Sequence record: MN445185.1
Length of the DNA stretch: 64,000 bases
From: Escherichia phage vB_EcoM_EC001
Strand: one strand, 5' to 3'
How positions within the stretch are numbered: the first letter of the stretch is position 1; each line of letters begins with the position of its first letter. This document shows positions 9,103 through 60,131 of the stretch, piece after piece. The notes below the pieces were generated by a model, which was not told the origin of the DNA, did no database searches, and was given only the letters and a program-made list of their open reading frames with translations. The translations under genes and the position numbers were made by a program.

Positions 9103-9135
9103 ACGGACACTCTTCGGGGTGTCCGTAGTTTTATT
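9103..9135 (+). terminator. rho-independent terminator
   Basis: Hairpin ACGGACAC..GTGTCCGT followed by T-rich tract. Confidence 0.65.
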
Positions 9136-9149
9136 TTAATCGACCATTA
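9136..9149 (+). promoter_or_regulatory. conserved 14-mer TTAATCGACCATTA (motif family B), candidate phage promoter or 5' leader element
   Basis: Exact 14-mer 17 nt upstream of ATG 9167; identical copies at 46667 and 47536, each 17-19 nt before a start codon. Confidence 0.45.
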
Positions 9150-10099: not shown

Positions 10100-10150
10100 T
10101 ACCCACTCCCCTTATGGGAGTGGGTAATGCTTATTTTTTTTTTATTTTTT
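10100..10150. terminator. bidirectional rho-independent terminator
   Basis: Stem TACCCACTCCC/GGGAGTGGGTA with long T-tract and upstream A-tract; stem nearly identical to the terminator at 281-318. Confidence 0.8.
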
Positions 10151-14515: not shown

Positions 14516-14933
14516 TCTGGTCAACGTCAATCTTTTCGCCTACTGGTGCCAACTCACCTTCTTTCGGAGGCCGTACTGCGGCAATCTGTGGGACGGTGGG
14601 TTGGTATCCGTTATTTAAATCTTCTTCATCGTCGTGACGTTTGATACCAACGCCTGCACGAGTCATTAAGAAGCCGTTTAAACTGTTGGCCAAATCTTGA
14701 GTCGCCTCAGCGCCTTTCTCAGCAGCTTTAATTTTCCGCTTCGTCATGACCTGTTTGTCGATGCCGTTGATTAGGCGTTCGATTCGGTCGACGGCTTTTA
14801 AGTCTTTGTGTACTTCACCGTCGTTCACCATATCTGTGACGAGCTTAACGCGTAGCTGTTGTGTTTGGCGGAGAAGCGAATCTTCGTTGTCCACATCTCC
14901 GTCGAACGCTTGGTATTTCACTTCTTCGCTCAT
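14463..14933 (-). CDS. hypothetical acidic protein (156 aa) with acidic C-terminal tail (ADDDED)
   Basis: ORF on minus strand; overlaps the 3' end of the + gene by ~50 nt, so one of the two ends may be mis-set. Confidence 0.45.
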   Translation of the reverse strand: MSEEVKYQAFDGDVDNEDSLLRQTQQLRVKLVTDMVNDGEVHKDLKAVDRIERLINGIDKQVMTKRKIKAAEKGAEATQDLANSLNGFLMTRAGVGIKRHDDEEDLNNGYQPTVPQIAAVRPPKEGELAPVGEKIDVDQIMASAFASRRPADDDED

Positions 14934-26276: not shown

Positions 26277-28538
26277 CTATCGCGCTTGTGGTAGGAAAAT
26301 GTTCGCGATTTGTCGTGCTGGTATGATATCTAACGCGGCGTTGACGATGCTGCCCTGTGACCAGGCACTTGCCCAGTTCTGCGCCCAGATAGACGCGTTG
26401 ATTTTAGCCTGCGCGATGCCGTTGGTACGCTCGTAAAGCGTGGCAGCGCCCAACACAGACATAAATTCACTGAACTTGTTATCATCATCAAACACACCAA
26501 TATCAGTTACAATCGGCATGTACATAACACGCGACAGGTCACGAATAGTTACCTGTATATCACACGACAACGGCAGACCGTCAGCACGCCAACCTAAACC
26601 ACCTGTACCGAACTGGAGACTCAGGTTAGTTACCATGGCGTTACGCATGGAATAACGACCGCGAGAATAGCACTCCAGATAGAACGGGTGTGTAAACGAT
26701 TGTTTACCGGTTGCTAACGGACAAACTGCCGCTAACCAGAACGACAACGGGACAATCAGATCCTGGAACACATCTAAGTCGTTACCCGACCAACAGCGAA
26801 GGGGAATGCTTAGCGAGATATCGTCACCTGAGGTGTCTGAGGAGTCCCACACTTCCGGGAAGTCAATCACTGACGAGTTGTACAGCGACATAATCCCTGA
26901 TAAATGCAAGAAATCGAGTGCGCCTGTAAAGGCGGACTTCAACCCAGTAATGAGACCATCGACTGCGTCGAAACCAGTCTTACCACCAGAGAGGTTTACT
27001 TCCAAAGAACGTGCTTTCTGTGTGGCGGAGTTAACCGTGCCAGAGATTTCAGGTTCTTTGGTGGTGTTGGAGAACGAACGCCCTACGGTATCACGTCCAT
27101 CAACACGCCAAGTAATCCACTGCGAACCATTGCGTATCTCCGAAGCGATGTTCGAAGTTAACCCATCCATAGCGCCTTCTAAAATATCGATATAGTCTTT
27201 GAAGACGCTACCGACAGATTCTTTCTGGCCTTGGTCCATCCAGTTTTCAATCTTCCCAATGTCGAGATTATTCTCATCCATTGAGTTTGCTTCGGTCTGA
27301 CTTTTAGCAACCTGAGCCTGGTTCTTTTCAACCTGTGCCATACGCTCGGCAAGCTTTTTACGTTGCGCATCACCTTCGTTTTCGAAGTTTTCAGCCTTAC
27401 CCCCTTGTGACTGAGCATCCTGAATGCTGCCGTTCATCCCTGCTACCAGTTCGTCTTCTTTGTTGTCGACGTTTTCAAAACCAGCATCGTACCCTTTACC
27501 GGCTTTGGCTACGTATTCAAGGTTACGTAAAGAAACCTCGTACTGCGCAGCTTTCTCCAAATGGGTTGTTGAGTACGTCGCTTCCAGATAGAAGTTTCGC
27601 AAACGACGAGCCATGTCCTCTTCGTTACTCGACTCTTTACGAATTTTATCGATGGTTTTCGCCTGGTAGTTGGCTAATGTTTGGTAGCGGTTAATCATTC
27701 GATAGATATCGAACTCACCATCAGCTGTCCAGATTTCTGGCAGCATGGAGTACCACTCTTTGCGGTCGCCGTTGTACTTATTAGCAGTACCGCCTTTCTC
27801 AGACCCATCTACAGCATTAGCAAGCTGGAAAGTCCCTAACACACCCGTTGGCACCAATCGGCGATAAACTAACTGGGTGTTGACCATATTCTGCACAGCG
27901 CGCAGATACAAGTGCATTGTCGGTTTCACGTAGTAGTAGCGAGAAGTCTGCTTGTTCAGCACCATCTTCAACATACGTGGTGTAATTAGAATAACCGCAA
28001 AGGCAACCGTACCTACTGCGGCCCATATTGCTGCGGCGGCAACATACGTCCCCATCGCACGTAACATACCTGGGTAGTCACCTGTGCGTGCCAGATACGC
28101 TAGGTTGGAATCGTACATATTCGCGAAGAATGCAGCTACCCCGATATATCGAGGTTTACCGAAACGACAATGAAGATAAAAACTGTTTTGGTTAATAGCT
28201 TCGTAATAGAAAGTCCCTAGACGATAGGAACCACGTTGGTCTTGACCTTTAACGTACTTTGAGTACGAGCCACGACCTGCATCGGGTTGTGCAAAAGCAC
28301 CTGTTGAACTCGGATCAGCAAACATCGTAAACTGCGGCGGCGCATTTAACGCTTGCGAACCACCCATCGTGGTATCTTCAAACGAGAGCATCGCGTTAGA
28401 GTAACGACGCAAACCCAGGAAGCGCTCATCGCGCTGTGCGGTTGTACCGCCAAACAGGCCGGTTACCCATCCTGAATCTTTTAGTTGTCTTGCTTCCACG
28501 TAAAACCTCTCTGTAAGATGATTAGGGGGTGTTGCCAC
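26277..28538 (-). CDS. putative virion internal/ejection protein (753 aa) with one TM segment
   Basis: Long ORF directly downstream of the SLT giant gene; hydrophobic segment TYVAAAAIWAAVGTVAFAVILITP; function is inference from context. Confidence 0.5.
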   Translation of the reverse strand: MATPPNHLTERFYVEARQLKDSGWVTGLFGGTTAQRDERFLGLRRYSNAMLSFEDTTMGGSQALNAPPQFTMFADPSSTGAFAQPDAGRGSYSKYVKGQDQRGSYRLGTFYYEAINQNSFYLHCRFGKPRYIGVAAFFANMYDSNLAYLARTGDYPGMLRAMGTYVAAAAIWAAVGTVAFAVILITPRMLKMVLNKQTSRYYYVKPTMHLYLRAVQNMVNTQLVYRRLVPTGVLGTFQLANAVDGSEKGGTANKYNGDRKEWYSMLPEIWTADGEFDIYRMINRYQTLANYQAKTIDKIRKESSNEEDMARRLRNFYLEATYSTTHLEKAAQYEVSLRNLEYVAKAGKGYDAGFENVDNKEDELVAGMNGSIQDAQSQGGKAENFENEGDAQRKKLAERMAQVEKNQAQVAKSQTEANSMDENNLDIGKIENWMDQGQKESVGSVFKDYIDILEGAMDGLTSNIASEIRNGSQWITWRVDGRDTVGRSFSNTTKEPEISGTVNSATQKARSLEVNLSGGKTGFDAVDGLITGLKSAFTGALDFLHLSGIMSLYNSSVIDFPEVWDSSDTSGDDISLSIPLRCWSGNDLDVFQDLIVPLSFWLAAVCPLATGKQSFTHPFYLECYSRGRYSMRNAMVTNLSLQFGTGGLGWRADGLPLSCDIQVTIRDLSRVMYMPIVTDIGVFDDDNKFSEFMSVLGAATLYERTNGIAQAKINASIWAQNWASAWSQGSIVNAALDIIPARQIANIFLPQAR

Positions 28539-28547
28539 CCCCTACGA

Positions 28548-31500
28548 TTAGCTTGCTTTCCGACTTACGTTTAACGACGGTGTCGGTTGGGTTATTTCCT
28601 GCCTGCGTGCAGCTGAGCCCGGAGGAGCCACATTTGCCGCTTGCTGGATACTACCACCCCGTGTGTCGTTTGCCGCTCTCGGATTTGATTTCAAAATATC
28701 ACGAATCTCTTTCAAGTAATCGCGAGACTGAATCAGTACCTTGAGCTGCTGAACATCTATCGGGTCACCATTCAGCGTTGGCGTCGATGCTGTAGCATCA
28801 GAAGTTGGGGCGGCAACTGGACGAGCTGCTGCGTTAACCTGCGCTTCCGCGCCTGCTTTCACTTTAGCAACATCCGTTGCAGACAATCCTTCTGCTGCAG
28901 CTTGCGACGCTACGGTTTCGGCTGTTGTTGAGGCATCGGATGTTCCGGAACCACCTGTAGTTGGTGTAGGTGCTGCTGGTCCTACATTACCTGCGGCGGT
29001 AGCCATTGCATCTTGTGCCGCCATGGCCCCTTTCTGCGTCAATGCGTCATCACGACGATTAGCATTATCTGCCGGCAGGTTATCTGCTGGCGACAGACTC
29101 GGATCATTAGCGGCCGGTGCACCCATTGCTGCTGCCGGGTTGGTTGGTGAATTAGGCGACAAGCCTGCAACCATATCCTTCGTCTTACTCGGATCGGCAG
29201 CGACTTCGTTGGCAGAAATTGCGCCCATACGGCGGTTCAGTTCCTGAATAACCCCATCCACGCTACGTATACGACCGTTGCTGTAGAAGACGTTGGCATT
29301 CCCTCTCAATATTGCGGATGTAATCCCAGGAGCACTCGATGCCGCCATATTCGGATTACGCTTCCATGCTTCCAGGAATTTCTTACCGCCGCCCGCACCC
29401 AGGAAGTGATACAGATAAGCCACGGCTGGAGGTGGTGCTTTACCACCCAGGTCACGCTGTGCTTGTTGGATGTTGTCACGAATGAACTGTACACCCAATA
29501 TAGCATTCGCCCACGGGTCCATCTGGTTAACACGCGGAATACCGAACTTCCGCGAATACCCCTTCATCATCCCGTCCCACGTACCGTCAATAAACTGGAA
29601 CAACCCAGACGCCGAAGCATACGGGTTTTTAGCGGTGTAGTTAAATCCGGACTCCGCCTTAGCCATTGCTAACGCCACTGCAGGTGGCACGCCCATCATG
29701 TTCGCCGCATCGGTAATCAATGCTTTGATATTCGGAACGTTCAACGCACCCTTTCTACCCAACATTTCTATCGGGTATTTTTCAGCCAGTGACTTATAAT
29801 CACCGTCTTTCACATCACTCAGGTTAATCGAAGACGAACCAGTGGTCATTGCAGCGTAGTTCCGCACACCACCAACCGCATCGACGACTTGACCCAAGTT
29901 ACCCGGCACACCACCACTCGTACCCGATGGAATGTAGCCTGAGGCGCGAGCACCGTCAGATGACAAAGAATCTCCCGAACTGATGTTCGAGTCTTCTTCA
30001 TCTTCATCGGTGACTTCCAGAGAACTGCGGTTCTTGTTACGATCCTTCCAGCGCGCACGCTTGCCATTATTTCTAATGGCTTTAATCATGTTACGCACGG
30101 CAAGGTCAGCTTCTTTTGACAACAGCTTCAGCGTTTCCAGCTCGGCTTTAATAGACGATGGGTTCGTGTTAGCCTCACCCCCTAATGGGTTGATATTCAC
30201 TTCCCACACCGACTGTCTTATACCACCTTTCAAGCTGTAGGCTGTTGACATCATCAAGCTGATTTCGTACAGGTAACCACCAGTCAGCTTCAAGTTCAGC
30301 GGATCGGCTGTTGGCAGGTAACGCTTCACCCCAACCAAATACGTCATGAATACCGGTAAGAAACGGTCAAAGAACCACCGCTTCAAACGATCTTCTTTCG
30401 GTGTACCGATAGCGTCTGGAACCATCGAGGCGATTGCTTTCTTCCAATCTCCTTTGTAGCTTGCGGTTTTCACGTCAATGTCTTTGATGACGTTCTTCTC
30501 GAATACCGTGATCAACGTGCGGGTGGCGTTATCGATGGTGGTAAAGCCGTAAGTCTTCCAACGCACCGATTCCATCGCATTCATGTCTTTCTGGTCGAGC
30601 ACCGCATTCCAGTCTACCTGAATCTGAACCTGCTCTGTTCCGTCTTCCCAACCCTCTACCTTCGCCAGATTTTTATTACGTTCGTTATCCAACTGTCCAA
30701 GTTTGTTGATAGCTTCATCAACGCCCGCGGACTTAATCCCCTCCACGGCCGGTGCCATTCCGTACTTACGTGCTTTCTTATCGTCCATTCTGGACTTGAT
30801 TGCACGCTCGACTTCATTCTGCACTTCCATAACCTCTTCACCGCTCAAGAACTCCTTCGGTGTAAAGGTTACAACGTCCCAAGCTTTCGAGAAGAAACCT
30901 TGGTTGACTTTGCGTGGGTCTGTTAACGAAGAGAACGCTTTTGCATCCTTAGTCATCTTCATTTTGTTGAAGAGAGTCAGCATGTCCTCTTTCGATACTT
31001 TCTTCGCATCGCCGACGTCAGCCAACTGGATACTGTTCGGCATTGACTTCAGTGCCGTAATCCAGCGGAGATAAATCGGAATAAAGCGCTGAAGCATAAA
31101 CGCTTGGAAGGCCAACATCTCGCCTTTTTCCTCAACGTTAATACCGAACCCTTCAGCTAGCTTCTGAACGTCTTTTCCACTTAGCCCGCGGAGACTGGCT
31201 TGGCCATCTTCCGCGTAAGACACATACTCACGCAATGCGTCTTCTAAGTAACGCGCTTTCGCCCCGTCGTCCGACGACCACTTATCGTAATCACGGAAAC
31301 CGTACTGAGCTAAACGCATCTTATCCAGGTACTGGGTATAGGTAGTCGTTGCAATCCTGTACGCGGCGTAACCAGCCGCAGCGATCGCACCACCGATAAG
31401 AATTGCCGGCCAACCCACCGCAGTCACGACGGCAGATGCCGCAGTTGCCACAGCGGACACCGCGGGTGCCGCCAAACGGGTTACTGCGAACTTACCGACA

Positions 31501-41538: not shown

Positions 41539-41562
41539 TAGGGCGGGTCGCTCCCGCCCGGT
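41539..41562 (+). terminator. GC hairpin, possible terminator or RNA stability element
   Basis: GGGCGGG-TCGCTC-CCGCCC hairpin after the 1401-aa gene; weak T-tract. Confidence 0.35.
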
Positions 41563-41583
41563 AAATAAACTCCGGAGTTAATA

Positions 41584-46635: not shown

Positions 46636-46666
46636 TGAGCGTTACACGTTAACGCTTTAATCGACC

Positions 46667-46680
46667 ATTACCCAGAAGGA
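46667..46680 (+). promoter_or_regulatory. conserved 14-mer TTAATCGACCATTA (motif family B)
   Basis: Exact copy 19 nt upstream of ATG 46690 (via SD AGAAGGAG). Confidence 0.45.
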
Positions 46681-47535: not shown

Positions 47536-47549
47536 TTAATCGACCATTA
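47536..47549 (+). promoter_or_regulatory. conserved 14-mer TTAATCGACCATTA (motif family B)
   Basis: Exact copy 17 nt upstream of ATG 47567. Confidence 0.45.
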
Positions 47550-50484: not shown

Positions 50485-52530
50485 TTAGCTCTCCCGACGG
50501 TAAACTTTGATAGTGGTGTTGAACTGGGTGAGCAGCACACCGCCTTCAGCGATCAGGTCCAGCGTCACAGAGTAACCATTGGATTTATCGTCTGCAGTGA
50601 AGTACGCCTTCGGAGTGACGACAGCAACGTTATCGAGACGGCCTTCCAGACGTTCGATAATTTTGTTCTCAATCATCTTCGCACGTTCATCATCCGTCAT
50701 GGCCGCTTCGCCAGACATGTCCGCCCATACACGGTCGGAAACACGATAGACGTAGGTCATCATGAAGTTGAACAGGGCGTTGTTCAGTACAGAACGATCT
50801 TCGCTGTAGATTGACTGAATCGCCGGAATGAACAAGCGATAGTAGTCGTAGGAACGGGCAGTGATCAGCGACACATCCCAGTCAGACGCATACACTTCGT
50901 TGCCTTTCCACGGCATACTCAGGTCAGTCAGATCTTCGATAATCGTCAGTTCGCCACGGCTGAAACGATAAGCCGGTTTTGCACGACCGTCGCCTGCACC
51001 CAGGTACTTCGAGAAGAAGTTCGCCAGGGAGTAGTTCATCGGAACAGGCTTCTTGTAGGAAGAGTTCTTGATGAACGCCGATTGGCCGGTGACCATACCA
51101 CGTGCAGCCGGAGTGCCGTAATAGGCAGATTCCGGTACCGCTGTGATCAATTCGATCAGGGCGATTTTTGCACTTTCTTCTGTCTGCTCATCGTTACGGC
51201 CTTGGCTGTAAACGTGAGTCGCCAGCGTCAAGAAGGTGTTACGTGAACGACCGATGAAGTTCACGAGCGCAGCTTTAGTATCGAAGCTAAAGCCAGAGTC
51301 CCAGAAACAACCCAGCGAGTATTTCAGCTCGTTGTCGTAACGGACTTTACCGCCATCCGGGAACAGCAGCATTTCACGGCGAACGAGTTCGTCGTAAACG
51401 TCGTTGTTCATGGTACCATCGCTACCACCTTGCAGGTAGTGGATGTTGGATGCGGAGAACACAACTTTACCGGTTTCAGTAGCCGGGTTTACCTGAAGAC
51501 CATCGTAAGGCTGGCCCAGTAAATCATAGCCGCCAAAGATGTCAACCATATACGGGTCAGCAGGCGCATCAGTTGTGATAGCGGCCTGAGCCAAGCCCAG
51601 TACAGTTTCCAGGTTCTCGCGATACAGATAGAACTGCTCGAAAGGACCATAATCTGGCAGCTCGCCAATGTCAGGCATCGTCTGACGATATGCATCCGCA
51701 ACAACAACTTCGAAGTCGAGTTGCGTTCTCATCGGCTGATAGTATGCATCGGGCTTAAAGCTAAAATTGATGCTACTCATGCCAGTGAGAGTTTTCCACA
51801 CTACCGGAGAAGTCACGCCTGCCAGGGTTTCGAACCATTGCAGGGTGTAAACACGACCACCGACTTCATTTTGATAGGAGGAGGTCAGAGCCGGGCTGGA
51901 TTTCTCGCTGAGTGGGATCATTTTGAAACCGAAACCGTTGACGTCAGCACCCGCATACGGGCCTGCGATATCGAACAACGGATACAGCTTCGATTTCGTG
52001 CCGCCTTCGCCAGTCATCGTCCCGTCGATAACCACACCTGCGCCGATGGCCGGGGTAGTTTCGTCGATTACGACAGAACGGAAGACGATTACCAAACCGT
52101 CAACTTGTTCTTTGATCTTGGGCTTGCCCGAGTTGTCGTACTGAACGATCCCGTTGCTGTCGCGTTCGTAGGACGGAACTTTCGTTTCGAGTACGTCGGC
52201 GAATACGCGAACACTTGCGGTTTTCGCATCTTCAGGGATCAAGCGCTGATACATACACTCGTTTGCGTTAGCGTTCAACATCGCCTGATAGGGCGTGTTG
52301 AACGTCGCGTAGGGGCCTCGCAAGTCAAAGACATTGCGACCAAGCAGAGACAGTGCATTATCCCCGGTTAACGGGAACGCCTCGTTGTCTACCCCGCGCG
52401 CGGCAAAGGTGAAGATCAGCGGCTTATGAATTGCGTCACCCGTAGGGGTACGCACAAGCTCGGGGACAGAGTTATCCTGCCAACCTTGCTTGTTATTCAA
52501 CGGCGCGCCGTTTCGTGGAATAAAAGTCAT
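50485..52530 (-). CDS. hypothetical structural protein (681 aa), possible tail sheath or large capsid protein
   Basis: Long ORF adjacent to the terminase-side structural block; no diagnostic motif, assignment by size and context. Confidence 0.3.
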   Translation of the reverse strand: MTFIPRNGAPLNNKQGWQDNSVPELVRTPTGDAIHKPLIFTFAARGVDNEAFPLTGDNALSLLGRNVFDLRGPYATFNTPYQAMLNANANECMYQRLIPEDAKTASVRVFADVLETKVPSYERDSNGIVQYDNSGKPKIKEQVDGLVIVFRSVVIDETTPAIGAGVVIDGTMTGEGGTKSKLYPLFDIAGPYAGADVNGFGFKMIPLSEKSSPALTSSYQNEVGGRVYTLQWFETLAGVTSPVVWKTLTGMSSINFSFKPDAYYQPMRTQLDFEVVVADAYRQTMPDIGELPDYGPFEQFYLYRENLETVLGLAQAAITTDAPADPYMVDIFGGYDLLGQPYDGLQVNPATETGKVVFSASNIHYLQGGSDGTMNNDVYDELVRREMLLFPDGGKVRYDNELKYSLGCFWDSGFSFDTKAALVNFIGRSRNTFLTLATHVYSQGRNDEQTEESAKIALIELITAVPESAYYGTPAARGMVTGQSAFIKNSSYKKPVPMNYSLANFFSKYLGAGDGRAKPAYRFSRGELTIIEDLTDLSMPWKGNEVYASDWDVSLITARSYDYYRLFIPAIQSIYSEDRSVLNNALFNFMMTYVYRVSDRVWADMSGEAAMTDDERAKMIENKIIERLEGRLDNVAVVTPKAYFTADDKSNGYSVTLDLIAEGGVLLTQFNTTIKVYRRES

Positions 52531-52587
52531 GGAACGTCTCCATATATTCGTCTTAAAGACCTGATGGTCATACTAAGGATCATACTC

Positions 52588-53493
52588 ATGGCACTCGAAA
52601 ACGCTTACAGCGGTAATCCCTTTAATGCACTTGACCTTACTCGCACCAAGGCAGACCTGGAATTAGCCCGTAAACTTAACCAAACTGTCTCACAGTCCGA
52701 TGAAGTTCATTACGTTGTTGAGACCGCTGATGTAAAACCGTTTCCTTTGCCGATTGTTATCGGCGACGACGTTTATGTATACGCAGCCACGTTTACCACG
52801 CTGGATAAGACCAACGAGCTAAAAATACGAAACCCAGTCGAACACGCATTGCGTCTCGACCAGGCTCGCTGGGAATTGGTGTGGAAACGGAGTAATGGTA
52901 AGCTTGCTGCACTGATGGCACAGATGCCCTACCACCATGAGATTTTCAGCAAATGGGTGTCGGATGCGATTACCCACACGTTTGCACTTGCTCCATATCA
53001 AAGTGGGCAAATCAAAGCGTTGGCTGCATTGTTCTCTGTGGGACAGTTCTATAATCACGTCGAAGATGATGTGAAAGCTTTACGTTTGCAGCAGATGCTG
53101 GAGCAACAATTAGGCTTACCTGCGGAACTGTTTGAATCAGTGACAGGCCACACAGAATATCTTTTCCCGCGTAATATCGCAGAATTCGTCGAAATGGTGC
53201 AGGCTGCAGATATCACTCCGCGGGTGCGTGACCTGAGCATTCTGTCTCTGCAGCAGATGTTGAATACCAGCTTCTTCGGGGTGAGTTATGAAAAACAACT
53301 CGCTACCAGCGCCATCGAATATCCGCCTAGTCTCTTCGTTATGATTAAGGCTTGTCTGGATAATAACATGTTTAACCGCAGTCGGTTAGGTGGGATTGTG
53401 AAGAAGTCAGACACCGCTAAGAAACGCGATAAGTTTGAATTCACCTACAACCTTCTGATGAATCAAAACACCAAACCACTGAACATCAAGTAA
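52588..53493 (+). CDS. hypothetical protein (301 aa)
   Basis: ATG at 52588 with SD TAAGGA; track ORF from 52426 would overlap the divergent gene start. Confidence 0.55.
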   Translation: MALENAYSGNPFNALDLTRTKADLELARKLNQTVSQSDEVHYVVETADVKPFPLPIVIGDDVYVYAATFTTLDKTNELKIRNPVEHALRLDQARWELVWKRSNGKLAALMAQMPYHHEIFSKWVSDAITHTFALAPYQSGQIKALAALFSVGQFYNHVEDDVKALRLQQMLEQQLGLPAELFESVTGHTEYLFPRNIAEFVEMVQAADITPRVRDLSILSLQQMLNTSFFGVSYEKQLATSAIEYPPSLFVMIKACLDNNMFNRSRLGGIVKKSDTAKKRDKFEFTYNLLMNQNTKPLNIK

Positions 53494-53503
53494 GAGGCCC
53501 ACT

Positions 53504-56017
53504 ATGGAGAACTGGCTGGTCGCTCACGCCGTTAAAAATGCGTGGCAGCGTCCGTACCTCGATGGGGTGTTGAACATTGCGCCTTTTCGATTAACTGAAA
53601 AGACCGGAGCGATCGGGTTTTTCAAGCACGGGCGTAATCCGATTCCTTTACCGGGCGAGGGGTGGTGGCACGCGTTTGTAATTGACAAGCTCCACCTCAA
53701 CTACGGCAACTTGAGTATCCCTCCTGAGCGCTGGAAGAAACTTACTACGTGTGTAAATAACTTCCATGCGTGGATGCAGGTGTACAACGAAGATGGGACA
53801 ATTATCCCGTCGAACTCTGTGTATTTCTGGCGGACACTCTCTGGTCAGATTTACATGGCGATTCCGCAAACGGAACGCTACAAGTGGTTAGACGACACAC
53901 CATGTTATCTACGCATTTATGCCGGTAATGATGGCGGCGAAAACGCTCCTGTTGTTAAACCGACATTCATCGAACCGTATAATCCGCCGAACCCACAACA
54001 GATCCAGATCGTCTTAGACCGTTATAATCTGTTGAAAGGCCAGAAAATCGGCTATGTCGATTTCTGGGTAAACGGAAAGATGATTGCTAATCCTAAGCCC
54101 GCGGATATCAAAGCATGGGATGATGTTGAAATTCGTGTCGACGGCCGCATTCGTCGTGTAATTGAATACCGTTGTGGGGATTTGCAAACGTTCTACTCAA
54201 CGCTTGACCAAACACGAAAATACCTGCTGCACATTCCAAAAGGGGATGGCATTTGGATTTTCAACAACGACTGTGAAATTCAGTTGTTGTGGAAAGGCGA
54301 AGGGCGTTACTACCACCGCCACCGTCATCAGGCCGTGCGTCAATTGACGTGGAACGATATATCGATTCCGTCGATGCGGATTTCGAAATACCGCACCGCT
54401 TTCACTAACCCAATGAATGATATCGACGAACTAACGATTCGTTTATTGATACGTGACGATTTCCTTGACCTGAAGCCACTGTATAACTCCACCCACACGC
54501 ACGACCTCTATCGTCTTAGTGACGAGCAGATCATCGGTGCGATGGTGGGGGCAAACTCCAACGTACCAGAGTGGACCGCAGCAGCGCTCGAGGAATCGGC
54601 AGCGAATCGGTTAGCGGCAGCCAAACTCCGGAACATCACACGCGATCTCTGCACTGATGCGTACGGCTACAATGCCGCCGCACGTTACAGTGCCGACACT
54701 CCACAGCGTCTGGAACTTACATCCGGTGGCTATCGCGGTACCTTGCCCGACTTACTGGCAACGCTGTCAACTGTATACGAGTACGATGCCGATGGGTTGC
54801 TGTTAGAACATCACCGTAATGCAGGCTACGATGTTTACATCCCTCGCAATCCAGAAGCACGAATCATCGAGGCTATTGCGGGTGAAGTCTCGGATGCGGT
54901 GAAGATTGTTGACAACGCTCCTGACTTTGAAATTGAGCCAGGTTCAAACGTTGGGCTGTGGATTCGAATGGTCATCGGGGAAGTTCCAACCAACGACTAC
55001 TACAAAGCCGAGGAAGGAACGGATTATACTCGCGACGGAAATAAAATCACCTGGACCGTAGATCGGACACGACGTCACCCGACAGTGATTTACGACGACT
55101 TCCATCTGTTCTTCGAAGTGGATGTTAAGGTGTCGGAAGGCCAGATACGTATTCCGATTGTAGCACGCAACCAAGACGGGCAGCAGCGCACGCTGTGGCT
55201 ACCGATGGAAACGGTTGAAGTATGGTTGAACAACCACCCACTGGTGCACGGTATCGATTACCACACCCGCTGGCCGGAAATTGTGGTGGTTTGTAAAGCG
55301 TGGATGGCGGACGGGGATACAAATAAAGTCTCGGTGCGTTGTCGTGGTGTGACCGGTGAACTCCGTATTCCTAAACATGGTTTCGTGTCAAGCGGACTGC
55401 TGTCTAATAACAGCCAGTTTGATTGCCGTGACGACAAAGTGATTCGTGTCGTGGGTGGCGGTTCACTGCTATTGCGTGACGAAGTCGTGTTCCGTGAAGA
55501 CAACACTGTAGGTGTTGACATCGTGCAAGACGGGTTCCCATACTCGGTCGACGATCCGACTATTCCGTTGCGGACGCTGGTAAGCGGCGATACGTACGAC
55601 TTGCGCGACACTGCCCGTGATTTGGACACACGCGTCGAGGCTTACCTGTCTAACTGGTTCCCGACACCTCCGCCGGTTAACCCGGTACCGTTGCCGTATC
55701 TGTATCACCTCTATTCGCCAACCCTGAACAAAATCTTGTGGGACTACTTGCAAGGTATTCTGATTCTGCGGGAAGACGATCCAGAGTATCGTATCTCGAC
55801 GTCACAGCTGGATGACATCATGGAGCGTTATAAAGACCTCCTCCCGTTTGACCCGGCCTACATCGGTTACGATAAAGCGTTTGTGAAACTGCATCCGCAC
55901 GTGAAGTACGAAACGGTAGAAATCAACGAACTTGGCTTTGCCTTCTTAGACCGCGTCAATGAACGTTATCTGAATGGCGAAGTGCAGCTTAATCAGTATC
56001 TGATAATCAAGGGTTAA
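53504..56017 (+). CDS. hypothetical large protein (837 aa), possibly virion-associated
   Basis: Long ORF in the block upstream of the terminase. Confidence 0.6.
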   Translation: MENWLVAHAVKNAWQRPYLDGVLNIAPFRLTEKTGAIGFFKHGRNPIPLPGEGWWHAFVIDKLHLNYGNLSIPPERWKKLTTCVNNFHAWMQVYNEDGTIIPSNSVYFWRTLSGQIYMAIPQTERYKWLDDTPCYLRIYAGNDGGENAPVVKPTFIEPYNPPNPQQIQIVLDRYNLLKGQKIGYVDFWVNGKMIANPKPADIKAWDDVEIRVDGRIRRVIEYRCGDLQTFYSTLDQTRKYLLHIPKGDGIWIFNNDCEIQLLWKGEGRYYHRHRHQAVRQLTWNDISIPSMRISKYRTAFTNPMNDIDELTIRLLIRDDFLDLKPLYNSTHTHDLYRLSDEQIIGAMVGANSNVPEWTAAALEESAANRLAAAKLRNITRDLCTDAYGYNAAARYSADTPQRLELTSGGYRGTLPDLLATLSTVYEYDADGLLLEHHRNAGYDVYIPRNPEARIIEAIAGEVSDAVKIVDNAPDFEIEPGSNVGLWIRMVIGEVPTNDYYKAEEGTDYTRDGNKITWTVDRTRRHPTVIYDDFHLFFEVDVKVSEGQIRIPIVARNQDGQQRTLWLPMETVEVWLNNHPLVHGIDYHTRWPEIVVVCKAWMADGDTNKVSVRCRGVTGELRIPKHGFVSSGLLSNNSQFDCRDDKVIRVVGGGSLLLRDEVVFREDNTVGVDIVQDGFPYSVDDPTIPLRTLVSGDTYDLRDTARDLDTRVEAYLSNWFPTPPPVNPVPLPYLYHLYSPTLNKILWDYLQGILILREDDPEYRISTSQLDDIMERYKDLLPFDPAYIGYDKAFVKLHPHVKYETVEINELGFAFLDRVNERYLNGEVQLNQYLIIKG

Positions 56018-56019
56018 TC

Positions 56020-57663
56020 ATGGCGAAGATTGCGTCCAAATTAATCGACAAGGATCGCGGGTTCGAAGTCTGGGACCCGAGTGAATTGTACGAACCAAAC
56101 AAACCAACAGGTTACGTACCTAACCCACGCGACCTCATCGTGAACGACATGACCTCCGGATTTGACCGTGTGGTTAGCGTAAACTATTCGGTACCGTCGT
56201 GGGAAACAGAACCGTTCGGCGGCGTTGGTGTGGCAAACCAAGACGGGCGTCTTAATGGCCACTACCCATTACGCTCTGACAGATATCGCGTCTACGTGGA
56301 CAGCACCAAACTTCCACCGACGATGGTTATCGATGATGCCGTCACTTTCAACGGTCCCGATATCGACGGTGTGCGTATCTTGCGTGGGTCATCTGTAAAC
56401 GATGATGCGGAAATCCTGTCTGGTTATTACAAAGACGGGGTTCTGAAAAAGAACTATCTGCCGGTGCAGACTATCAGTGCGGCTGACGCAGAAACTGTGG
56501 TGAAGCAAGCGATTCCTGGGAGCTGTCTGGCTGAAGTCAGTAACGGCGAAGAGTGTACCTTCCTGGTTTACTCTGACACCGGTAACGTTGTTCAGATCGC
56601 TCACGGTCACATCATCAAGACCAATCTGGTGATGGCGCAAGAGACTCCGTCTCGCACTGTGCTAGGTATTAAACTGGTTTCACCGTTCCTGGTAGACGAC
56701 AATGGTACTACGCTGACGCTGCCGATTAACATCCCGCTGGAATCTATTCCGCTGTGGTGTGACATCCAGTACAGCGACGGAACCAAACGCCTACCTATCG
56801 ATGGTTCGCGTGTGAAGTTTAACGGTCTGCGTAACTCTGGTGCTCACGACACATTCTACATTGCGTCAAACGCCGGTAATGAGTTACCTTGCCAGTTAAG
56901 CTATCAGTTGGCTCGCGGTGAAACCTACGGTGGTACTGACATTGTTAAAGATACAATTGTCAAAGACTACACCGCTGTAACCGAAACAGTCGATGGTGCT
57001 TATTCCATGAAGCTGTTTGTGGTTCCGCGTTGGTTGGATGCGAACCGTGGCTATCGTCTGTCGTTCCTGTTGTACAACCTGACTCGCGGCCAAGTCTACG
57101 ACGCGACCGCAAACATCCAGTACACCACAGGGACTACTTTCGACCCACTATTGATGGGTGTGAAACAGCGTCTGAATGTGCAGGTGGATATCAGCAAAGT
57201 AAATCCACAATTCCGCGCATTCATCCAGGCGCAGTCTTTCGCCATCACGTTAGTGAACCCAGGTAACGAGTTGAATACCAACTTCCTTATCGAATACCTG
57301 CCTGATGGGCTGGTCTACGGTAATGAAATTTGGGCGGAGTTCAAATACTCTAACGTCAACTACTCCACGCTGAACCTTCGTTGTGGTTGTGCCTCTAAAG
57401 CCGAGTGGCTTAAAGCGTTGTACGAGCCGGTTTATCCACTCTACGATCGTCGTAATGAATCTGAGGCTCCCGAGCCTACACACTTTGAGGTGCATGTCGG
57501 TGGTAAGGTTTACACCCACAGCATCGATGAGTGGTTAAATGAGCAAACGGTAGATTATCGTATCGCTCTGGACGATTCGTTAGTTATTCGCTGGATTCGT
57601 CGCACTCCTACGGATACGCTTAACCTCGCGGCTACGCCAATGCTGGCGCACCACATCGAGTAA
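56020..57663 (+). CDS. hypothetical protein (547 aa), possibly virion-associated
   Basis: Long ORF immediately after upstream stop. Confidence 0.6.
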   Translation: MAKIASKLIDKDRGFEVWDPSELYEPNKPTGYVPNPRDLIVNDMTSGFDRVVSVNYSVPSWETEPFGGVGVANQDGRLNGHYPLRSDRYRVYVDSTKLPPTMVIDDAVTFNGPDIDGVRILRGSSVNDDAEILSGYYKDGVLKKNYLPVQTISAADAETVVKQAIPGSCLAEVSNGEECTFLVYSDTGNVVQIAHGHIIKTNLVMAQETPSRTVLGIKLVSPFLVDDNGTTLTLPINIPLESIPLWCDIQYSDGTKRLPIDGSRVKFNGLRNSGAHDTFYIASNAGNELPCQLSYQLARGETYGGTDIVKDTIVKDYTAVTETVDGAYSMKLFVVPRWLDANRGYRLSFLLYNLTRGQVYDATANIQYTTGTTFDPLLMGVKQRLNVQVDISKVNPQFRAFIQAQSFAITLVNPGNELNTNFLIEYLPDGLVYGNEIWAEFKYSNVNYSTLNLRCGCASKAEWLKALYEPVYPLYDRRNESEAPEPTHFEVHVGGKVYTHSIDEWLNEQTVDYRIALDDSLVIRWIRRTPTDTLNLAATPMLAHHIE

Positions 57664-57671
57664 CAAACCTT

Positions 57672-57695
57672 CCTCCACCCCTTCGGGGGTGGAGG
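57672..57695 (+). terminator. stable GC hairpin without U-tract (attenuator or processing/stability element)
   Basis: CCTCCACCCC-TTCG-GGGGTGGAGG perfect 10-bp stem; right arm overlaps the terminase SD region. Confidence 0.4.
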
Positions 57696-57707
57696 TATGG
57701 AGATTGT

Positions 57708-59819
57708 ATGATACTGCGAAAAAACGATTGGCGACACTATCCGGGGGCGATTGTTGACGATGTCACACCAAACGTGCACTTCCTTCAGTTCGCCACAACA
57801 CTACAAGGATTAGGTGTCCAGCATTGGTACGTCCACCTGGCATTACACAATCCCGAACTCCGTGGTGTTGATCCATTTAGCCCGGATTTAACACTCGAAC
57901 AAAAAGCGATGATTGTTACGGAGTGTGCGGAAAACCCATGGTACTTCTTCCGTGAGTGTGTCCGGGTCCCTGCGGATGGTGTAAAGAACGGGATGCCGTT
58001 TCGTCTAGACCGCGGTAACTTTTCGATGTATTGGATTTTCTTCAACAACATCGACGCCGCTATCGAGTTTCTCCGTCAGCATGGTAAAACTGTCGGGATG
58101 TCCGCATTGCTATTGTGGCTGATGCGCTTCCTGGAGAACTCACGTACGATTCTTATCACGAAGGGTCCTGCCCTGCGTGAAGAAACTATCAACAAAATGA
58201 AACAACTGCGTAACGCGTTACCGGATTATCTCTGGCCTCATCACCCAGACGATCCTGATAACCGTGAGACATTTGCATGTCTAGCGCAGGGTAACAAACT
58301 TATCACCGGCATCGGTCAAAACGATAAGGAAGCTGCGAACGGGGTAGGCCGTGGACTCACAGCCGGACGCCTGTTCTCGGATGAAGGACCGTTTACCAAC
58401 AACATCCACCATATCCTCCCTGCTGCACTAGCATCGGGTACCGCGGCGCGTCGTATTAACGAAGCCGAAGGTGTTCCATACGGCAACGTCTTCGCAACAA
58501 CGCCTGGGGATTTGGCGACAGAAGAAGGCGAGTACATGTACAGCCTGATGACGTCGGGGATTTCGTGGGATGAACGGTATATCGACATTCCGACTCGTGC
58601 ACAACTGATTGACATGATTCGCAAAGGCTCTACTGCGAAGATTCCACGTATCATGTTCTACGTGAAATACAACCACCGCCAACTCGGTACCACGGACGAA
58701 GAACTCGCAGATATGATTGCGAACGCCCCAGGTACACTAGACCAAATCCGCCGTGACTTCGGTGGTGAATGGACAACCGGTGGTTACAACAAACCGTTCT
58801 CAGGCGATGATGCAAGACGTATGAACGACTCGCGTGTTCGTGCGGCGCAGAAAATTATCTCTGCTTCCAACTACGTAACGGATTGGTATTACACTGAAGA
58901 ACAGATGCTGGTTAAAATGCAAGACCGCCACATCATCGGTTTGGATACTTCCGAAGCCGTTGGACGTGACGCCATTGCCATGTCAATCGTCAACTCTGTC
59001 ACTGCCGAATATGCCGGCAAGCTCACCGTGAACGAAACAAACGTCATCGGGTTTGCGATTCACTTAGCAGACTTCATGATCGAATATCCGAACACGGTAC
59101 TCATTCTGGAACGACGGTCTACCGGCTCCTCGGTAGCAGATGCCATCATACTGCAGCTGCAATCTAAGGTTCGCGATTTGCATCGTCGTTTGTACGTGAA
59201 AGTGACCCAGGATTACTCAAGGAACGATGAACTTTACAAAGAGTTCCATCGTGGCCCTGTGGGCAGTCCAGAGCGCTTCTGGGACAAATTCCGTAAATAC
59301 ATCGGTTTCTCAACCGACCAGGATAAACGCCGTAAGTTGTATGGTGAAGTATTTACCACGGCGTTGCGTCTTTCTGCGGACTTACTGCGGTCAGGCGAAT
59401 TGATCGACCAAATCCTCGGTCTCGTCGAACGAAACGGGCGCATAGACCACCGTGCATCCGGTCACGATGACCTGGTAATATCCTGGCTTCTGGCAATGTG
59501 GTTACTTCTGTTCGGCAACAACTTAGGCCACTACGGTATAAGTAACAGCCGACTGATGATGCGCAACCGCAATATGCTCGGGGGCATGGCAGGTGAATTC
59601 GATGAAGAGGCTGCAGTCGAGGAAGAAGAAAAGCAACAACAACTGATGGGGCAAATTGAAACGATGATTAGACAGAGTCAAGTTGTAGCCGACCCGGTAC
59701 AACAGCTCATGTACAAGAATCGTATTCAAGCGCTCGTCTCTCAACTCAACACTGACGTTCGTAACGTCGCATCGATGGAAAGCTTGAAAGAGCTAATCCA
59801 ACGACAGAGGATGAAGTGA
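57708..59819 (+). CDS. terL: terminase large subunit
   Basis: Walker A-like LRQHGKTVGMS, then a C-terminal Asp-containing segment HIIGLDTSEAVGRDAIAMSIVN consistent with a terminase nuclease domain; size 703 aa. Confidence 0.7.
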   Translation: MILRKNDWRHYPGAIVDDVTPNVHFLQFATTLQGLGVQHWYVHLALHNPELRGVDPFSPDLTLEQKAMIVTECAENPWYFFRECVRVPADGVKNGMPFRLDRGNFSMYWIFFNNIDAAIEFLRQHGKTVGMSALLLWLMRFLENSRTILITKGPALREETINKMKQLRNALPDYLWPHHPDDPDNRETFACLAQGNKLITGIGQNDKEAANGVGRGLTAGRLFSDEGPFTNNIHHILPAALASGTAARRINEAEGVPYGNVFATTPGDLATEEGEYMYSLMTSGISWDERYIDIPTRAQLIDMIRKGSTAKIPRIMFYVKYNHRQLGTTDEELADMIANAPGTLDQIRRDFGGEWTTGGYNKPFSGDDARRMNDSRVRAAQKIISASNYVTDWYYTEEQMLVKMQDRHIIGLDTSEAVGRDAIAMSIVNSVTAEYAGKLTVNETNVIGFAIHLADFMIEYPNTVLILERRSTGSSVADAIILQLQSKVRDLHRRLYVKVTQDYSRNDELYKEFHRGPVGSPERFWDKFRKYIGFSTDQDKRRKLYGEVFTTALRLSADLLRSGELIDQILGLVERNGRIDHRASGHDDLVISWLLAMWLLLFGNNLGHYGISNSRLMMRNRNMLGGMAGEFDEEAAVEEEEKQQQLMGQIETMIRQSQVVADPVQQLMYKNRIQALVSQLNTDVRNVASMESLKELIQRQRMK

Positions 59820-60058
59820 TGACTCAACTCTACTATGCAATCGTGATGGTAATGTGGATTTGTCTGTACTTTGGCTTACGCCACACCATCGAAGTAATAC
59901 GCATACACGCACAAAGTCACGATGTCTGCACACGCACAATGCGGCTCGGACAGATTATCTGTAGCTTTGGCGTATTGCTTATCGGTGGACTATCGACCGC
60001 GGGGCTACACGTTGTGTATACCCTACATCAAGTTGCCGTATCGGGAGCACTCGCCTGA
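59819..60058 (+). CDS. small membrane protein (about 2 TM helices)
   Basis: Hydrophobic segments YYAIVMVMWICLYFGL and ICSFGVLLIGGLSTAGL; start overlaps the terminase stop. Confidence 0.45.
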   Translation: MTQLYYAIVMVMWICLYFGLRHTIEVIRIHAQSHDVCTRTMRLGQIICSFGVLLIGGLSTAGLHVVYTLHQVAVSGALA

Positions 60059-60073
60059 ATCAACTTTAACTCG

Positions 60074-60131
60074 AAAAAATACGACGTTGCCACCTCTCCG
60101 AAACTGGAGAGGTGGCACTTTATTTTATTTC
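60074..60131. terminator. bidirectional rho-independent terminator
   Basis: GCCACCTCTCC-GAAACT-GGAGAGGTGGC hairpin with A-tract upstream and T-tract downstream. Confidence 0.8.

Follow-up and report, generated by a model that had tools for sequence, protein, structure and literature searches.

Stable stem-loops within bacterial operons, such as the malE-malF REP hairpins and the hairpins of the Rhodobacter puf operon, stabilize mRNA. These hairpins carry no U-tract and separate upstream genes of high demand from a downstream gene of low demand. In SD-sequestering hairpins, the functional Shine-Dalgarno (SD) sequence lies inside a stem, and systems that act through an upstream ORF (leader-peptide attenuators, coupled phage genes) have a conserved ORF with a usable ribosome-binding site, and either alternative conserved RNA structures or coupling between ribosome and polymerase.

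The closest described junction is found in phiKZ. There, the hairpin after gp26 is the mapped TTS T006 (14840, minus strand; bioRxiv 10.1101/2023.10.13.562163 supplement), with transcript 3' ends 5 nt past the stem, and the late promoter P006 (TSS 14812), which comes after T006, drives the terminase gene gp25 (bioRxiv 10.1101/2023.10.13.562163). The phiKZ terminator motif is BCCYCCCCHWWDGGGRRGGBYTTATKYYGT (Putzeys et al. 2024, PMC10914365 / bioRxiv 10.1101/2023.10.13.562163). For T028, T030, and T031, 3' ends were mapped at or 4 to 6 nt after hairpins without a real U-run, and at T028 at least, the ribosome-binding site of the next gene comes after (bioRxiv 10.1101/2023.10.13.562163); as ONT-cappable-seq 3' ends, such positions may reflect termination or trimming, which the method does not distinguish. 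In the literature searched, no transcript-end data were found for SPN3US or its close relatives. In SPN3US-type phages, transcription takes place inside the phage nucleus, apart from ribosomes (review PMC13282480).

A hairpin without a U-tract in the terminase operon

The stretch of DNA analyzed here, referred to as the window (64,000 nucleotides), belongs to an SPN3US-like jumbo phage related to phiKZ. Its plus-strand operon at 52588-60058 consists of five genes with virion-structural and packaging functions and holds the following features.

52588-53493, plus strand: first gene of the operon, hypothetical protein (SPN3US annotation ACQ60_gp009; ORF 52426-53493)
53504-56017, plus strand: gene of an 837-aa virion structural protein, DUF7193 (Pfam PF23823, E = 6.8e-197; SPN3US annotation)
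56020-57663, plus strand: gene of a 547-aa virion structural protein (phrog_3430, E = 1.8e-224)
57664-57671, plus strand: spacer between stop codon and hairpin, short, A-rich, and single-stranded (CAAACCTT)
57672-57695, plus strand: hairpin, with 5' arm 57672-57681, UUCG loop 57682-57685, and 3' arm 57686-57695
57697-57711, plus strand: mini-ORF ATG-GAG-ATT-GTA-TGA, judged incidental
57699-57702, plus strand: probable working SD, GGAG, 5 nt upstream of the terminase ATG
57708-59819, plus strand: gene of the terminase large subunit, 703 aa (phrog_2, E = 1.3e-62)
59816-60058, plus strand: 80-aa ORF, last gene of the operon, overlapping the terminase stop (phrog_8972; annotated in relatives)
60088-60117, no single strand: canonical bidirectional terminator closing the operon, a 13-bp stem followed by CTTTATTTTATTT

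The first gene is divergent from the tail sheath gene. By position, the 547-aa gene is the counterpart of phiKZ gp26; its TAA stop (57661-57663) lies 8 nt 5' of the hairpin. The terminase, which PHROGs recognized and Pfam did not, is 33.8% identical to phiKZ gp25, and its N terminus (MILR..DW) is conserved from exactly the ATG at 57708. While the remaining junctions of the operon measure 10 nt, 2 nt, and a 4-nt overlap, a structured spacer of 44 nt is found solely before terminase.

The hairpin at 57672-57695, CCTCCACCCC-TTCG-GGGGTGGAGG, has a 10-bp stem without mismatch, 8 of the pairs being G-C, and a free energy of -21.6 kcal/mol. As had been predicted from the sequence, it ends at 57695 and no U-tract follows. 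Indeed, the 15 nt on its 3' side read TATGGAGATTGTATG and the tail reads TATGGAGATTGT, unlike the U-tract of an intrinsic terminator; the five nucleotides right after the stem (UAUGG) are expected to form a strong RNA:DNA hybrid. Six perfect stems of at least 10 bp with a 4-nt loop were counted in the window, compared to 0.07 per dinucleotide shuffle. When at least 8 G-C pairs were required, this hairpin alone was left (shuffles, 0.0). A terminator scan did not call it on the plus strand, and a search of 57000-58500 with the covariance models of Rfam 15 gave no match at E ≤ 1. No second copy of its sequence was found in the window, ruling out a repeated, REP-like element.

We compared the hairpin with phiKZ T006 and found it to be the positional counterpart of this site. 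Both lie at the same gene junction, after the gp26-type structural gene and before terminase, and both begin 7 to 8 nt past the stop codon. The C/T-rich 5' arm CCTCCACCCC and the G/A-rich 3' arm GGGGTGGAGG also agree with the stem of the phiKZ motif. However, the window hairpin does not have the YTTAT or T-rich tail of T006, and the ribosome-binding site of terminase follows after 3 nt, whereas phiKZ has about 100 nt holding the late promoter.

The hairpin also resembles canonical intrinsic terminators, including those of the window, in having a G+C-rich perfect stem and a stable tetraloop just past a stop codon. The hairpins of the full terminators of the window (e.g., at 10100, 49560, 60088, and 63235) start 2 to 10 nt after stop codons, and in most of the window's terminators pyrimidines dominate the 5' arm and purines the 3' arm, which includes GGAG. 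Their free energies range from -16 to -24.5 kcal/mol, so that the stability of the hairpin before terminase is comparable or greater. What sets this hairpin apart is the sequence that follows, since the full terminators carry YTTATTTTTT 3' of the hairpin. If the rule for bacteria applied, the polymerase should pause at most, and not be released, at a hairpin that lacks a U-tract; the polymerase here is the phage's own. The malE-malF and puf hairpins are similar in several respects: the window hairpin is stable, lies inside an operon without a U-tract between genes of bulk need and one of low need, and by analogy would be expected to block 3'-to-5' exonucleases. Unlike them, it is single-copy and lineage-specific rather than repeated, its setting is a nucleus-forming phage with its own RNA polymerase, and its function is proposed from comparison.

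Selection on the hairpin in relatives

Covariation was studied in loop-anchored alignments; MAFFT misaligned the divergent stems. All 144 of the 144 loop-anchored cells, that is, 16 distinct stem variants with 9 pairs each, held canonical pairs. In alignment A5, both sides had changed at 5 of the 9 pairs, and the covariation score was 0.522, compared to 0.150 in shuffles (reached in 0 of 500) and 0.07 to 0.19 in slid controls. Interior mismatches of the stem comprised 14 G.U (G.T) against a single A.C. This asymmetry (14:1) argues for RNA of the gene-sense strand, and not DNA, as the selected molecule, and a DNA cruciform or a minus-strand element was rejected. The alignments thus indicate that the hairpin is strongly selected as plus-strand RNA. 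RNAalifold returned the hairpin alone, with no conserved alternative helices; an outer helix joining the upstream stop region to the terminase start appeared in the single-sequence MFE structure and was rejected as not conserved.

All relatives with a terminase identity of 69% or more keep the hairpin in its position, as does Goslar (about 32%), while between lineages the stem sequences are wholly different. Loops vary as well (UUCG, GAAA, GCAA, GGUC, AAAA, and UUGC among relatives), and the sequence after the stem, G-TATGG in the window, is CATGG, TGAGG, GAGGA, or CGGGA in relatives. In the SPN3US clade, the hairpin abuts the ribosome-binding site of terminase, and no T-run was found 3' of the hairpin in close relatives. 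At 80 further loci, a strong hairpin was nearly always present 3' of the gene for the structural protein of about 550 aa. Where the intergenic region of these loci was compact (41 to 74 nt), the hairpin usually met the ribosome-binding site and had no T-run; where it was long (at least 83 nt), the tail of the hairpin was usually TTTAT or T-rich. In one relative (L046), the 19-nt junction has no hairpin, showing that the hairpin is not indispensable.

Supply of terminase

Since its placement after a stop codon and its arm composition are shared with the terminators of the window, we class the hairpin with them. The reading that we favor, with modest confidence, is that it represents a terminator-type intercistronic stem-loop, which would form or protect the 3' end of the upstream message and lower the amount of terminase mRNA. 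The phage RNA polymerase would read through the hairpin into terminase, since no promoter dedicated to this gene is evident. Some of the transcripts would stop at the hairpin, through weak termination or because 3'-to-5' trimming halts at the stem, so that stable message of the three upstream genes (two for virion structural proteins) would outnumber the message running into terminase, an enzyme presumably needed in catalytic amounts only. Translation of terminase would start from the exposed GGAG (57699-57702) and AUG, the GGAGG of the stem and the mini-ORF having no part in it. We thus infer for SPN3US that 3' ends form at the hairpin and that read-through supplies terminase; the effect on terminase dosage would be a decrease, and the loss of the tail may have a selective meaning. 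If this holds true, a leaky terminator-type hairpin sets terminase dosage in SPN3US-type jumbo phages, while phiKZ relies on a dedicated promoter. The locus would then be a concrete case of operon boundaries shifting within a phage family with the RNA hairpin retained.

Alternatively, the hairpin could protect a 5' end. RNase E would cut the A/U-rich spacer, and the hairpin, being at the 5' end of the terminase message, would block 5'-end-dependent decay and raise expression; it would also keep the ribosome-binding site from pairing with upstream sequence. The spacer between stop codon and hairpin is indeed always short and A/U-rich (6 to 10 nt in close relatives, 11 nt in Goslar). In most SPN3US-clade lineages, the hairpin ends just short of the ribosome-binding site, at 10 to 12 nt from the ATG, and the 12-bp hairpin of Goslar lies 12 nt from this codon. 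When folding was modeled, SD and AUG stayed fairly accessible beside the native hairpin, and the CCUCC of the 5' arm, once freed, pairs with the real SD (probability of being unpaired, 0.02). However, the homologous hairpin of phiKZ lies upstream of the terminase TSS and hence outside the terminase mRNA, and the ATG is farther away in Derbicus-like and Vibrio relatives (20 to 27 nt) and in phiKZ (more than 100 nt). Moreover, the position of the hairpin tracks the upstream stop codon, as that of the window's terminators does. We therefore regard 5'-end protection as unlikely.

Search for a terminase promoter

With its 44 nt, the intergenic region has no obvious space for a promoter of terminase. 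Synonymous-site conservation was not raised near the junction, and on these grounds a promoter hidden within the 3' part of the upstream gene was rejected. The promoter-like motif TAATCGACCATTA was absent near the terminase operon. Because the core of phiKZ-type late promoters is so short (TATG), some residual chance of a cryptic promoter near the junction has to be allowed for.

Such a promoter could be the TATG at 57696-57699, directly after the stem. Terminator and promoter would then be compressed into one module, in which efficient termination is followed by a restart that produces a very short terminase leader. phiKZ shows exactly that arrangement over 139 nt, and the late promoters listed for it have TATGA as their last nucleotides, at the TSS (bioRxiv 10.1101/2023.10.13.562163); in the window, TATGGAG is also present before the tail sheath gene. 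Nevertheless, TATG is not conserved, being CATG in SPAsTU and TGAG in Erskinevirus and absent from two further relatives (L014 and L026). TATGGAG occurs 6 times where 4.65 would be expected, and TATG has no preferred position before genes. In addition, a transcript starting at 57700 would lose part of the SD. As neither sequence is enriched or conserved, a TATG or TATGGAG late promoter fused to the SD was rejected, and we consider a compressed module of this kind quite improbable.

Shine-Dalgarno sequence and mini-ORF

According to the original prediction, the GGAGG of the 3' arm doubles as the SD of terminase. This sequence lies 12 nt from the terminase ATG and is fully paired, and the stems of distant relatives (GTACCCCCGGCC, GGTCTAGGGG) contain no SD-like sequence at all. 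In contrast, the GGAG at 57699-57702 is invariant among close relatives (alignment A1), and its distance to the ATG falls within the spacing usual in this phage (5 to 8 nt). In the folding model, its probability of being unpaired was 0.47, compared to 0.00 for the GGAGG of the stem. The working SD is thus most likely GGAG at 57699-57702, downstream of the stem, and the GGAGG was rejected for this role. The hairpin is therefore not of the SD-sequestering type, although its GGAGG is paired to CCUCC as in such hairpins.

The mini-ORF itself is present as predicted, its TGA (57709-57711) overlapping the terminase ATG (57708-57710). It had been proposed to couple or attenuate the translation or transcription of terminase while the hairpin sequesters the SD. 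Like ORFs of known coupling systems, it shares an ATGA at its end with the start codon downstream, and a similar ORF, of 3 codons and with a terminal ATGA, is present in one distant relative (L025). Outside Seoulvirus, however, its ATG gives way to GAG or a different codon, as seen in Erskinevirus and the majority of other relatives, and it is absent from phiEaH2, Asesino, and most IMG/VR relatives. Its sole SD candidate is the GGAGG, which is tied up in the stem and leaves 1 nt to the ATG. Out-of-frame mini-ORFs with an upstream ATG were found at 12 of the 65 genes of the window, and in 3 of these the stop overlaps the start codon. A functional upstream ORF was thus rejected for lack of conservation, poor SD geometry, and frequency by chance, and the mini-ORF is judged a chance by-product.

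Since the phage nucleus separates transcription from ribosomes (PMC13282480), ribosome-dependent attenuation of transcription is unsupported, and the coupling on which leader-peptide attenuators depend is excluded. Together with the conserved SD outside the stem and the lack of conserved alternative helices, this makes control through sequestration and the mini-ORF very improbable. The original prediction is partly supported as a whole: read-through attenuation of terminase dosage comes near to our favored explanation, given the T006 counterpart, the lack of a T-rich tail, and the lack of evident room for a promoter, while its ribosome-dependent form is not upheld. No new mechanism is revealed, as the hairpin is ordinary in kind and the mini-ORF idea, the more unusual part, fails.

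The adjoining terminase gene and the very strongly conserved position could also suggest a site for a sequence-specific protein (translational operator, mRNA-export or packaging factor) or a DNA signal (cruciform, packaging site), but we give this hardly any credence, since neither stem nor loop sequence is conserved, the excess of G.U over A.C favors RNA, the element occurs once in the window, and Rfam gave no match.

Other hairpins without a T-run

Returning to the terminator-type stem-loop, we found two further hairpins of the window that lack a T-run, both between same-strand genes.

28523-28544, minus strand: second hairpin lacking a T-run, separated by 3 nt from the stop codon of the tail-fibre gene and followed by the ribosome-binding site of the next gene
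41541-41559, plus strand: third hairpin lacking a T-run, located between the RNA polymerase beta gene and the ribosome-binding site of the gene that follows

Together with the hairpin before terminase, they provide three defined sites of possible termination by a phage polymerase without a U-tract. On the favored reading, post-stop hairpins without a T-run in SPN3US-type phages should not be annotated as terminators of equal strength.

Terminators with a T-run exist 21 to 23 nt from start codons in the window (12807 and 48962), showing that the loss of the tail is not forced by space.

More speculatively, the post-stop G+C-rich hairpins of nucleus-forming jumbo phages may represent tunable punctuation, read by the phage RNA polymerase or during the processing or export of RNA. 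A TTAT or T-run tail would act as a full stop (phiKZ T006 with its separate promoter) and its loss as a partial, read-through stop (SPN3US, Goslar), so that operon boundaries would be rewired whenever a tail is gained or lost, with selection on the hairpin itself persisting. The three hairpins without a T-run would be members of this class. We offer this generalization tentatively and think it rather unlikely to hold in full.

The stem of the hairpin at 28523-28544 covaries with that of Asesino, and at this tail-fibre junction the tail is present in Asesino and absent in the window. The hairpin at 41541-41559 is conserved in Erwinia phages with five different stems.

Position and anatomy of the hairpin

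As judged from 2 kb around the hairpin, where identity was 97.9% to SPN3US and 99% to Salmonella phages SPLA1a and SPFM series, the window belongs to an SPN3US-like (Seoulvirus) jumbo phage that measures ~240 kb and is related to phiKZ. The hairpin lies in a densely packed operon in which two of the other junctions span 10 and 2 nt and the third is a 4-nt overlap; a 44-nt spacer is found only before the terminase gene.

52588-60058 (+), operon including the structural and terminase genes, divergent from the tail sheath gene
56020-57663 (+), virion structural protein gene, upstream neighbor of terminase (phrog_3430, E = 1.8e-224)
57672-57695 (+), hairpin with 10 perfect pairs (8 G-C) and a UUCG loop, -21.6 kcal/mol
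57697-57711 (+), mini-ORF ATG-GAG-ATT-GTA-TGA
57708-59819 (+), terminase large subunit gene (phrog_2, E = 1.3e-62; 33.8% identity to phiKZ gp25)
60088-60117, canonical bidirectional terminator at the operon end

The junction consists of TAA (57661-57663), CAAACCTT, CCTCCACCCC, TTCG, GGGGTGGAGG, and T ATG GAG ATT GT ATG A. The terminase ribosome-binding site starts 3 nt past the stem, and no U-tract is present 3' of the hairpin. The elements described in the original prediction, namely a perfect 10-bp hairpin without U-tract and a mini-ORF overlapping the terminase ATG, were thus all found in the sequence. The hairpin greatly exceeds chance expectation: perfect stems of at least 10 bp with a 4-nt loop number six in the window and 0.07 per dinucleotide shuffle, and at least 8 G-C pairs occur in no other of the six. 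Its 91-nt context gave a folding z of -3.5.

Conservation and covariation

We aligned the junctions of SPN3US, SPAsTU, pEa_SNUABM_29, phiEaH2, and Asesino and added a set of 23 IMG/VR relatives with terminase identity down to 69%. Every relative of both sets harbored a perfect 9- to 12-bp hairpin at the same position, although the stems were widely divergent (for example, CCTCCACCCC, CCTCCTCTCC, GCCTCCTACCC, GTACCCCCGGCC, GCCCTCCTGCC, and GGTCTAGGGG) and the loop was UUCG, GAAA, GCAA, GGUC, GGCC, AAAA, or UUGC. In a loop-anchored count of 16 distinct variants, all 144 of 144 pairs were canonical, with at least two pair types at every stem position. A gap-free alignment of 12 variants had 100% paired cells and both-sided changes at 5 of 9 pairs (17 cells); its covariation score was 0.522, compared to 0.150 in shuffles (0/500) and 0.07 to 0.19 with slid partners. 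Judged by this covariation, the terminase-junction hairpin is a selected RNA structure.

Counterparts in phiKZ, Goslar, and other relatives

The structural-structural-terminase gene order is kept in phiKZ (gp27-gp26-gp25), Goslar, and Vibrio phage pVp-JHP1101. In phiKZ, GCCCCCTAGG-TGGTT-CCTAGGGGGC begins 7 nt past the gp26 stop and is followed by TTTATAACGTCTTTT. By ONT-cappable-seq, Putzeys et al. mapped terminator T006 to 14840 on the minus strand, 5 nt past the gp26 stem (supplement of bioRxiv 10.1101/2023.10.13.562163). Terminase is transcribed in units TU009 and TU010 from the late promoter P006, whose TSS is at 14812, 28 nt beyond T006 (bioRxiv 10.1101/2023.10.13.562163). Since T006 precedes this TSS, the phiKZ hairpin belongs to the upstream message, at its 3' end, and lies outside the terminase mRNA.

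ARNold did not call T006 "intrinsic" (phiKZ TTS table, bioRxiv 10.1101/2023.10.13.562163). In the same table, the 3' ends T028, T030, and T031 fall at, or 4 to 6 nt past, hairpins without a real U-run, and at least for T028 the ribosome-binding site of the next gene follows directly. Of 132 terminators mapped in 201phi2-1, only 52 counted as factor independent (PMC11512511). Transcripts with 3' ends at hairpins of this kind are thus on record for the virus family, termination and exonucleolytic trimming being indistinguishable by the mapping method.

Goslar (~32% terminase identity) shares the compact design of the window junction: a 12-bp hairpin without U-tract stands 12 nt from the ATG, with GGAGGAGTTTATATG directly after it. 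We surveyed 80 further loci of 32 to 45% identity, and a strong hairpin followed the ~550-amino-acid structural gene in nearly all of those having this gene directly upstream. In compact intergenic regions (41 to 74 nt), the hairpin usually met the ribosome-binding site without a T-run, one locus (L045), which carries TTTTTATT, being the clear exception; in long regions (at least 83 nt), a TTTAT or T-rich tail was usual. The locus IMGVR_UViG_3300004097_000040 (45% terminase identity) has a 19-nt structural-terminase junction and lacks the hairpin, so loss of the element is possible.

Similar hairpins across the window

A survey of every intergenic region of the window showed that strong hairpins in this phage start 2 to 10 nt past stop codons, most with a pyrimidine-rich 5' arm and a purine-rich 3' arm containing GGAG.

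Eleven hairpins with the T-rich tail YTTATTTTTT: 280, 3359, 9103, 10100, 12807, 19218, 25661, 48962, 49560, 60088, 63235
Three hairpins without T-run, between same-strand genes: 28523 (minus strand), 41541, 57672

The tail, often 2 to 5 nt past the stem, is similar to YTTAT in the terminator motif published for phiKZ, BCCYCCCC-HWWD-GGGRRGGB-YTTATKYYGT (PMC10914365); hairpin 57672 shares the stem style of this motif but lacks the tail. Among the eleven canonical terminators, several serve convergent gene pairs and are bidirectional. Hairpins 28523 and 41541, which also lack T-runs, are likewise conserved, with compensatory changes. At the tail-fiber gene, the stem is GGGGGTG/CACCCCC in the window and GGGGGCA/TGCCCCC in Asesino, which carries TTTTCTTTAA as a T-rich tail; the window has no such tail but ATCATCTTAC. 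The T-tail is therefore evolutionarily labile and the hairpins are persistent, on which a separate reading as tunable punctuation is based. The tail-fiber hairpin, within 28497-28550 (-), lies 3 nt past the stop of the 2,373-amino-acid gene, and the gene downstream probably starts at a GTG near 28497 rather than at the longer-ORF start 28538.

Proposed role and alternatives

Hairpin 57672-57695 belongs with known terminator-type or intercistronic stem-loops. We have moderate confidence in the terminator-stem family of explanations, in which weak termination and stabilization are not separable in silico. The hairpin would be a terminator stem that the upstream structural-gene block has retained, at a junction compacted in the SPN3US lineage, where the T-rich tail and separate promoter of phiKZ are absent. 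The terminase and an 80-amino-acid gene would then have to rely on transcripts reading through the hairpin. Either weak termination or 3'-to-5' trimming halted at the stem would give some transcripts their 3' end there, leaving a stable message for the three upstream genes and the terminase mRNA as a minority species. The anatomy, the selection on the structure, the positional homology, and the phiKZ mapping are established; 3'-end formation in SPN3US and this effect on dosage are inferred.

It is unlikely that the hairpin instead protects the 5' end of the terminase message once RNase E has cut within the A/U-rich spacer: the constant 10- to 12-nt distance between hairpin and ATG would suit this role, but in phiKZ the hairpin is not part of that message.

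Distinctly less probable is a compressed terminator combined with a TATG promoter. TATG directly follows the stem of the window, and in the part of the phiKZ late-promoter list considered here, entries P003 and P006 end in TATGA at the TSS (bioRxiv 10.1101/2023.10.13.562163). As a conserved promoter core, TATG was rejected, the relatives having CATG, TGAG, or nothing at this place. No hidden terminase promoter was found by synonymous conservation, TATG/TATGGAG statistics, or a candidate motif. Synonymous-site conservation was 0.35 to 0.39 over the final 20 to 40 codons of the upstream gene, lower than its mean of 0.50, and unremarkable at the terminase 5' end; TATGGAG was not enriched (6 matches versus 4.65 expected), and TATG had no positional preference upstream of genes. 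The candidate, an exact 13-mer (TAATCGACCATTA), is absent near the terminase operon. It occurs three times on the plus strand (9137-9149, 46658-46670, and 47537-47549), each 17 to 20 nt upstream of a gene start (9167, 46690, and 47567), and may be a phage promoter motif; the first copy directly follows terminator 9103-9126, and a looser copy, TTAATCACACTGACC, stands before gene 48265. Promoters for both directions must lie in the 57-nt region 52531-52587, which separates the minus-strand tail sheath gene from the divergent first gene of the operon. TATATGGAGACG stands before the tail sheath ATG, and the same TATGGAGA also follows the terminase hairpin; statistical enrichment of TATGGAGA was not found.

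In the original prediction, the 3' arm of the hairpin doubles as the Shine-Dalgarno (SD) sequence; we consider the model of SD sequestration and mini-ORF control that follows from it very improbable. The GGAGG of the stem stands 12 nt before the terminase ATG and only 1 nt before the mini-ORF ATG and is fully paired: in a partition-function fold, the probability of being unpaired was 0.00 for this GGAGG, 0.47 for the downstream GGAG, and 0.72 for the AUG. Close relatives share the invariant block GGAGATTGTATGATACT, with GGAG 5 nt before the terminase ATG, and since SD cores in this phage mostly lie 5 to 8 nt from the start, the GGAG at 57699-57702 fits this role. In distant relatives, the stems are devoid of any SD-like sequence and a separate GGAGG lies downstream. 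The mini-ORF ATG is confined to the Seoulvirus group, being GAG in phiEaH2 and Asesino and missing from most other relatives. Upstream out-of-frame ATG mini-ORFs occur at 12 of 65 window genes, with the stop overlapping the start in three, and ATGGAG, with GGAG as the SD, is found at two others. Because its ATG is not conserved, its SD geometry is poor, and such mini-ORFs are common, the mini-ORF is best explained as incidental to an SD that by chance follows AT, the ATGA overlap arising from the conserved Met-Ile start of terminase. Nucleus formation, experimentally shown for SPN3US, Asesino, and Goslar, parts transcription from translation (review, PMC13282480), and leader-peptide attenuation by the mini-ORF is therefore implausible for this late operon. 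Of the proposed control of terminase, read-through attenuation is plausible, while a functional mini-ORF and an SD inside the stem are unsupported.

The Phobos- and Derbicus-like Erwinia phages (L023 and L025) carry GGGAGGTATGGCAA(A)T/CATG ~10 nt upstream of the terminase ATG. The ATG is in frame in L023, where it could lengthen terminase by 3 codons; in L025 it opens a 3-codon ORF ending in an ATGA overlap, and in L026 it is missing (ATC instead). The GGAGGTATGG string recurs independently and the reading frame is not conserved.

Least probable of all is a sequence-specific protein site or a DNA signal. Neither stem nor loop sequence is conserved, so that the selected property is a stable helix per se and not a sequence-specific binding site. 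A search tolerating mismatches of any kind over all fetched loci gave 42 distinct hairpins, in which interior mismatches were G.T in 14 cases and A.C in 1, a signature of gene-sense-strand RNA and not of DNA or the opposite strand. Unlike the terminase hairpin, whose loops vary, the hairpin past the RNA polymerase beta gene (within 41541-41583, +) has five covarying stems with a constant UCGCU pentaloop in Salmonella and Erwinia phages (loci L115 to L118), which could reflect sequence-specific recognition. It is followed by the invariant, self-complementary CTCCGGAG, which contains the SD of the next gene.
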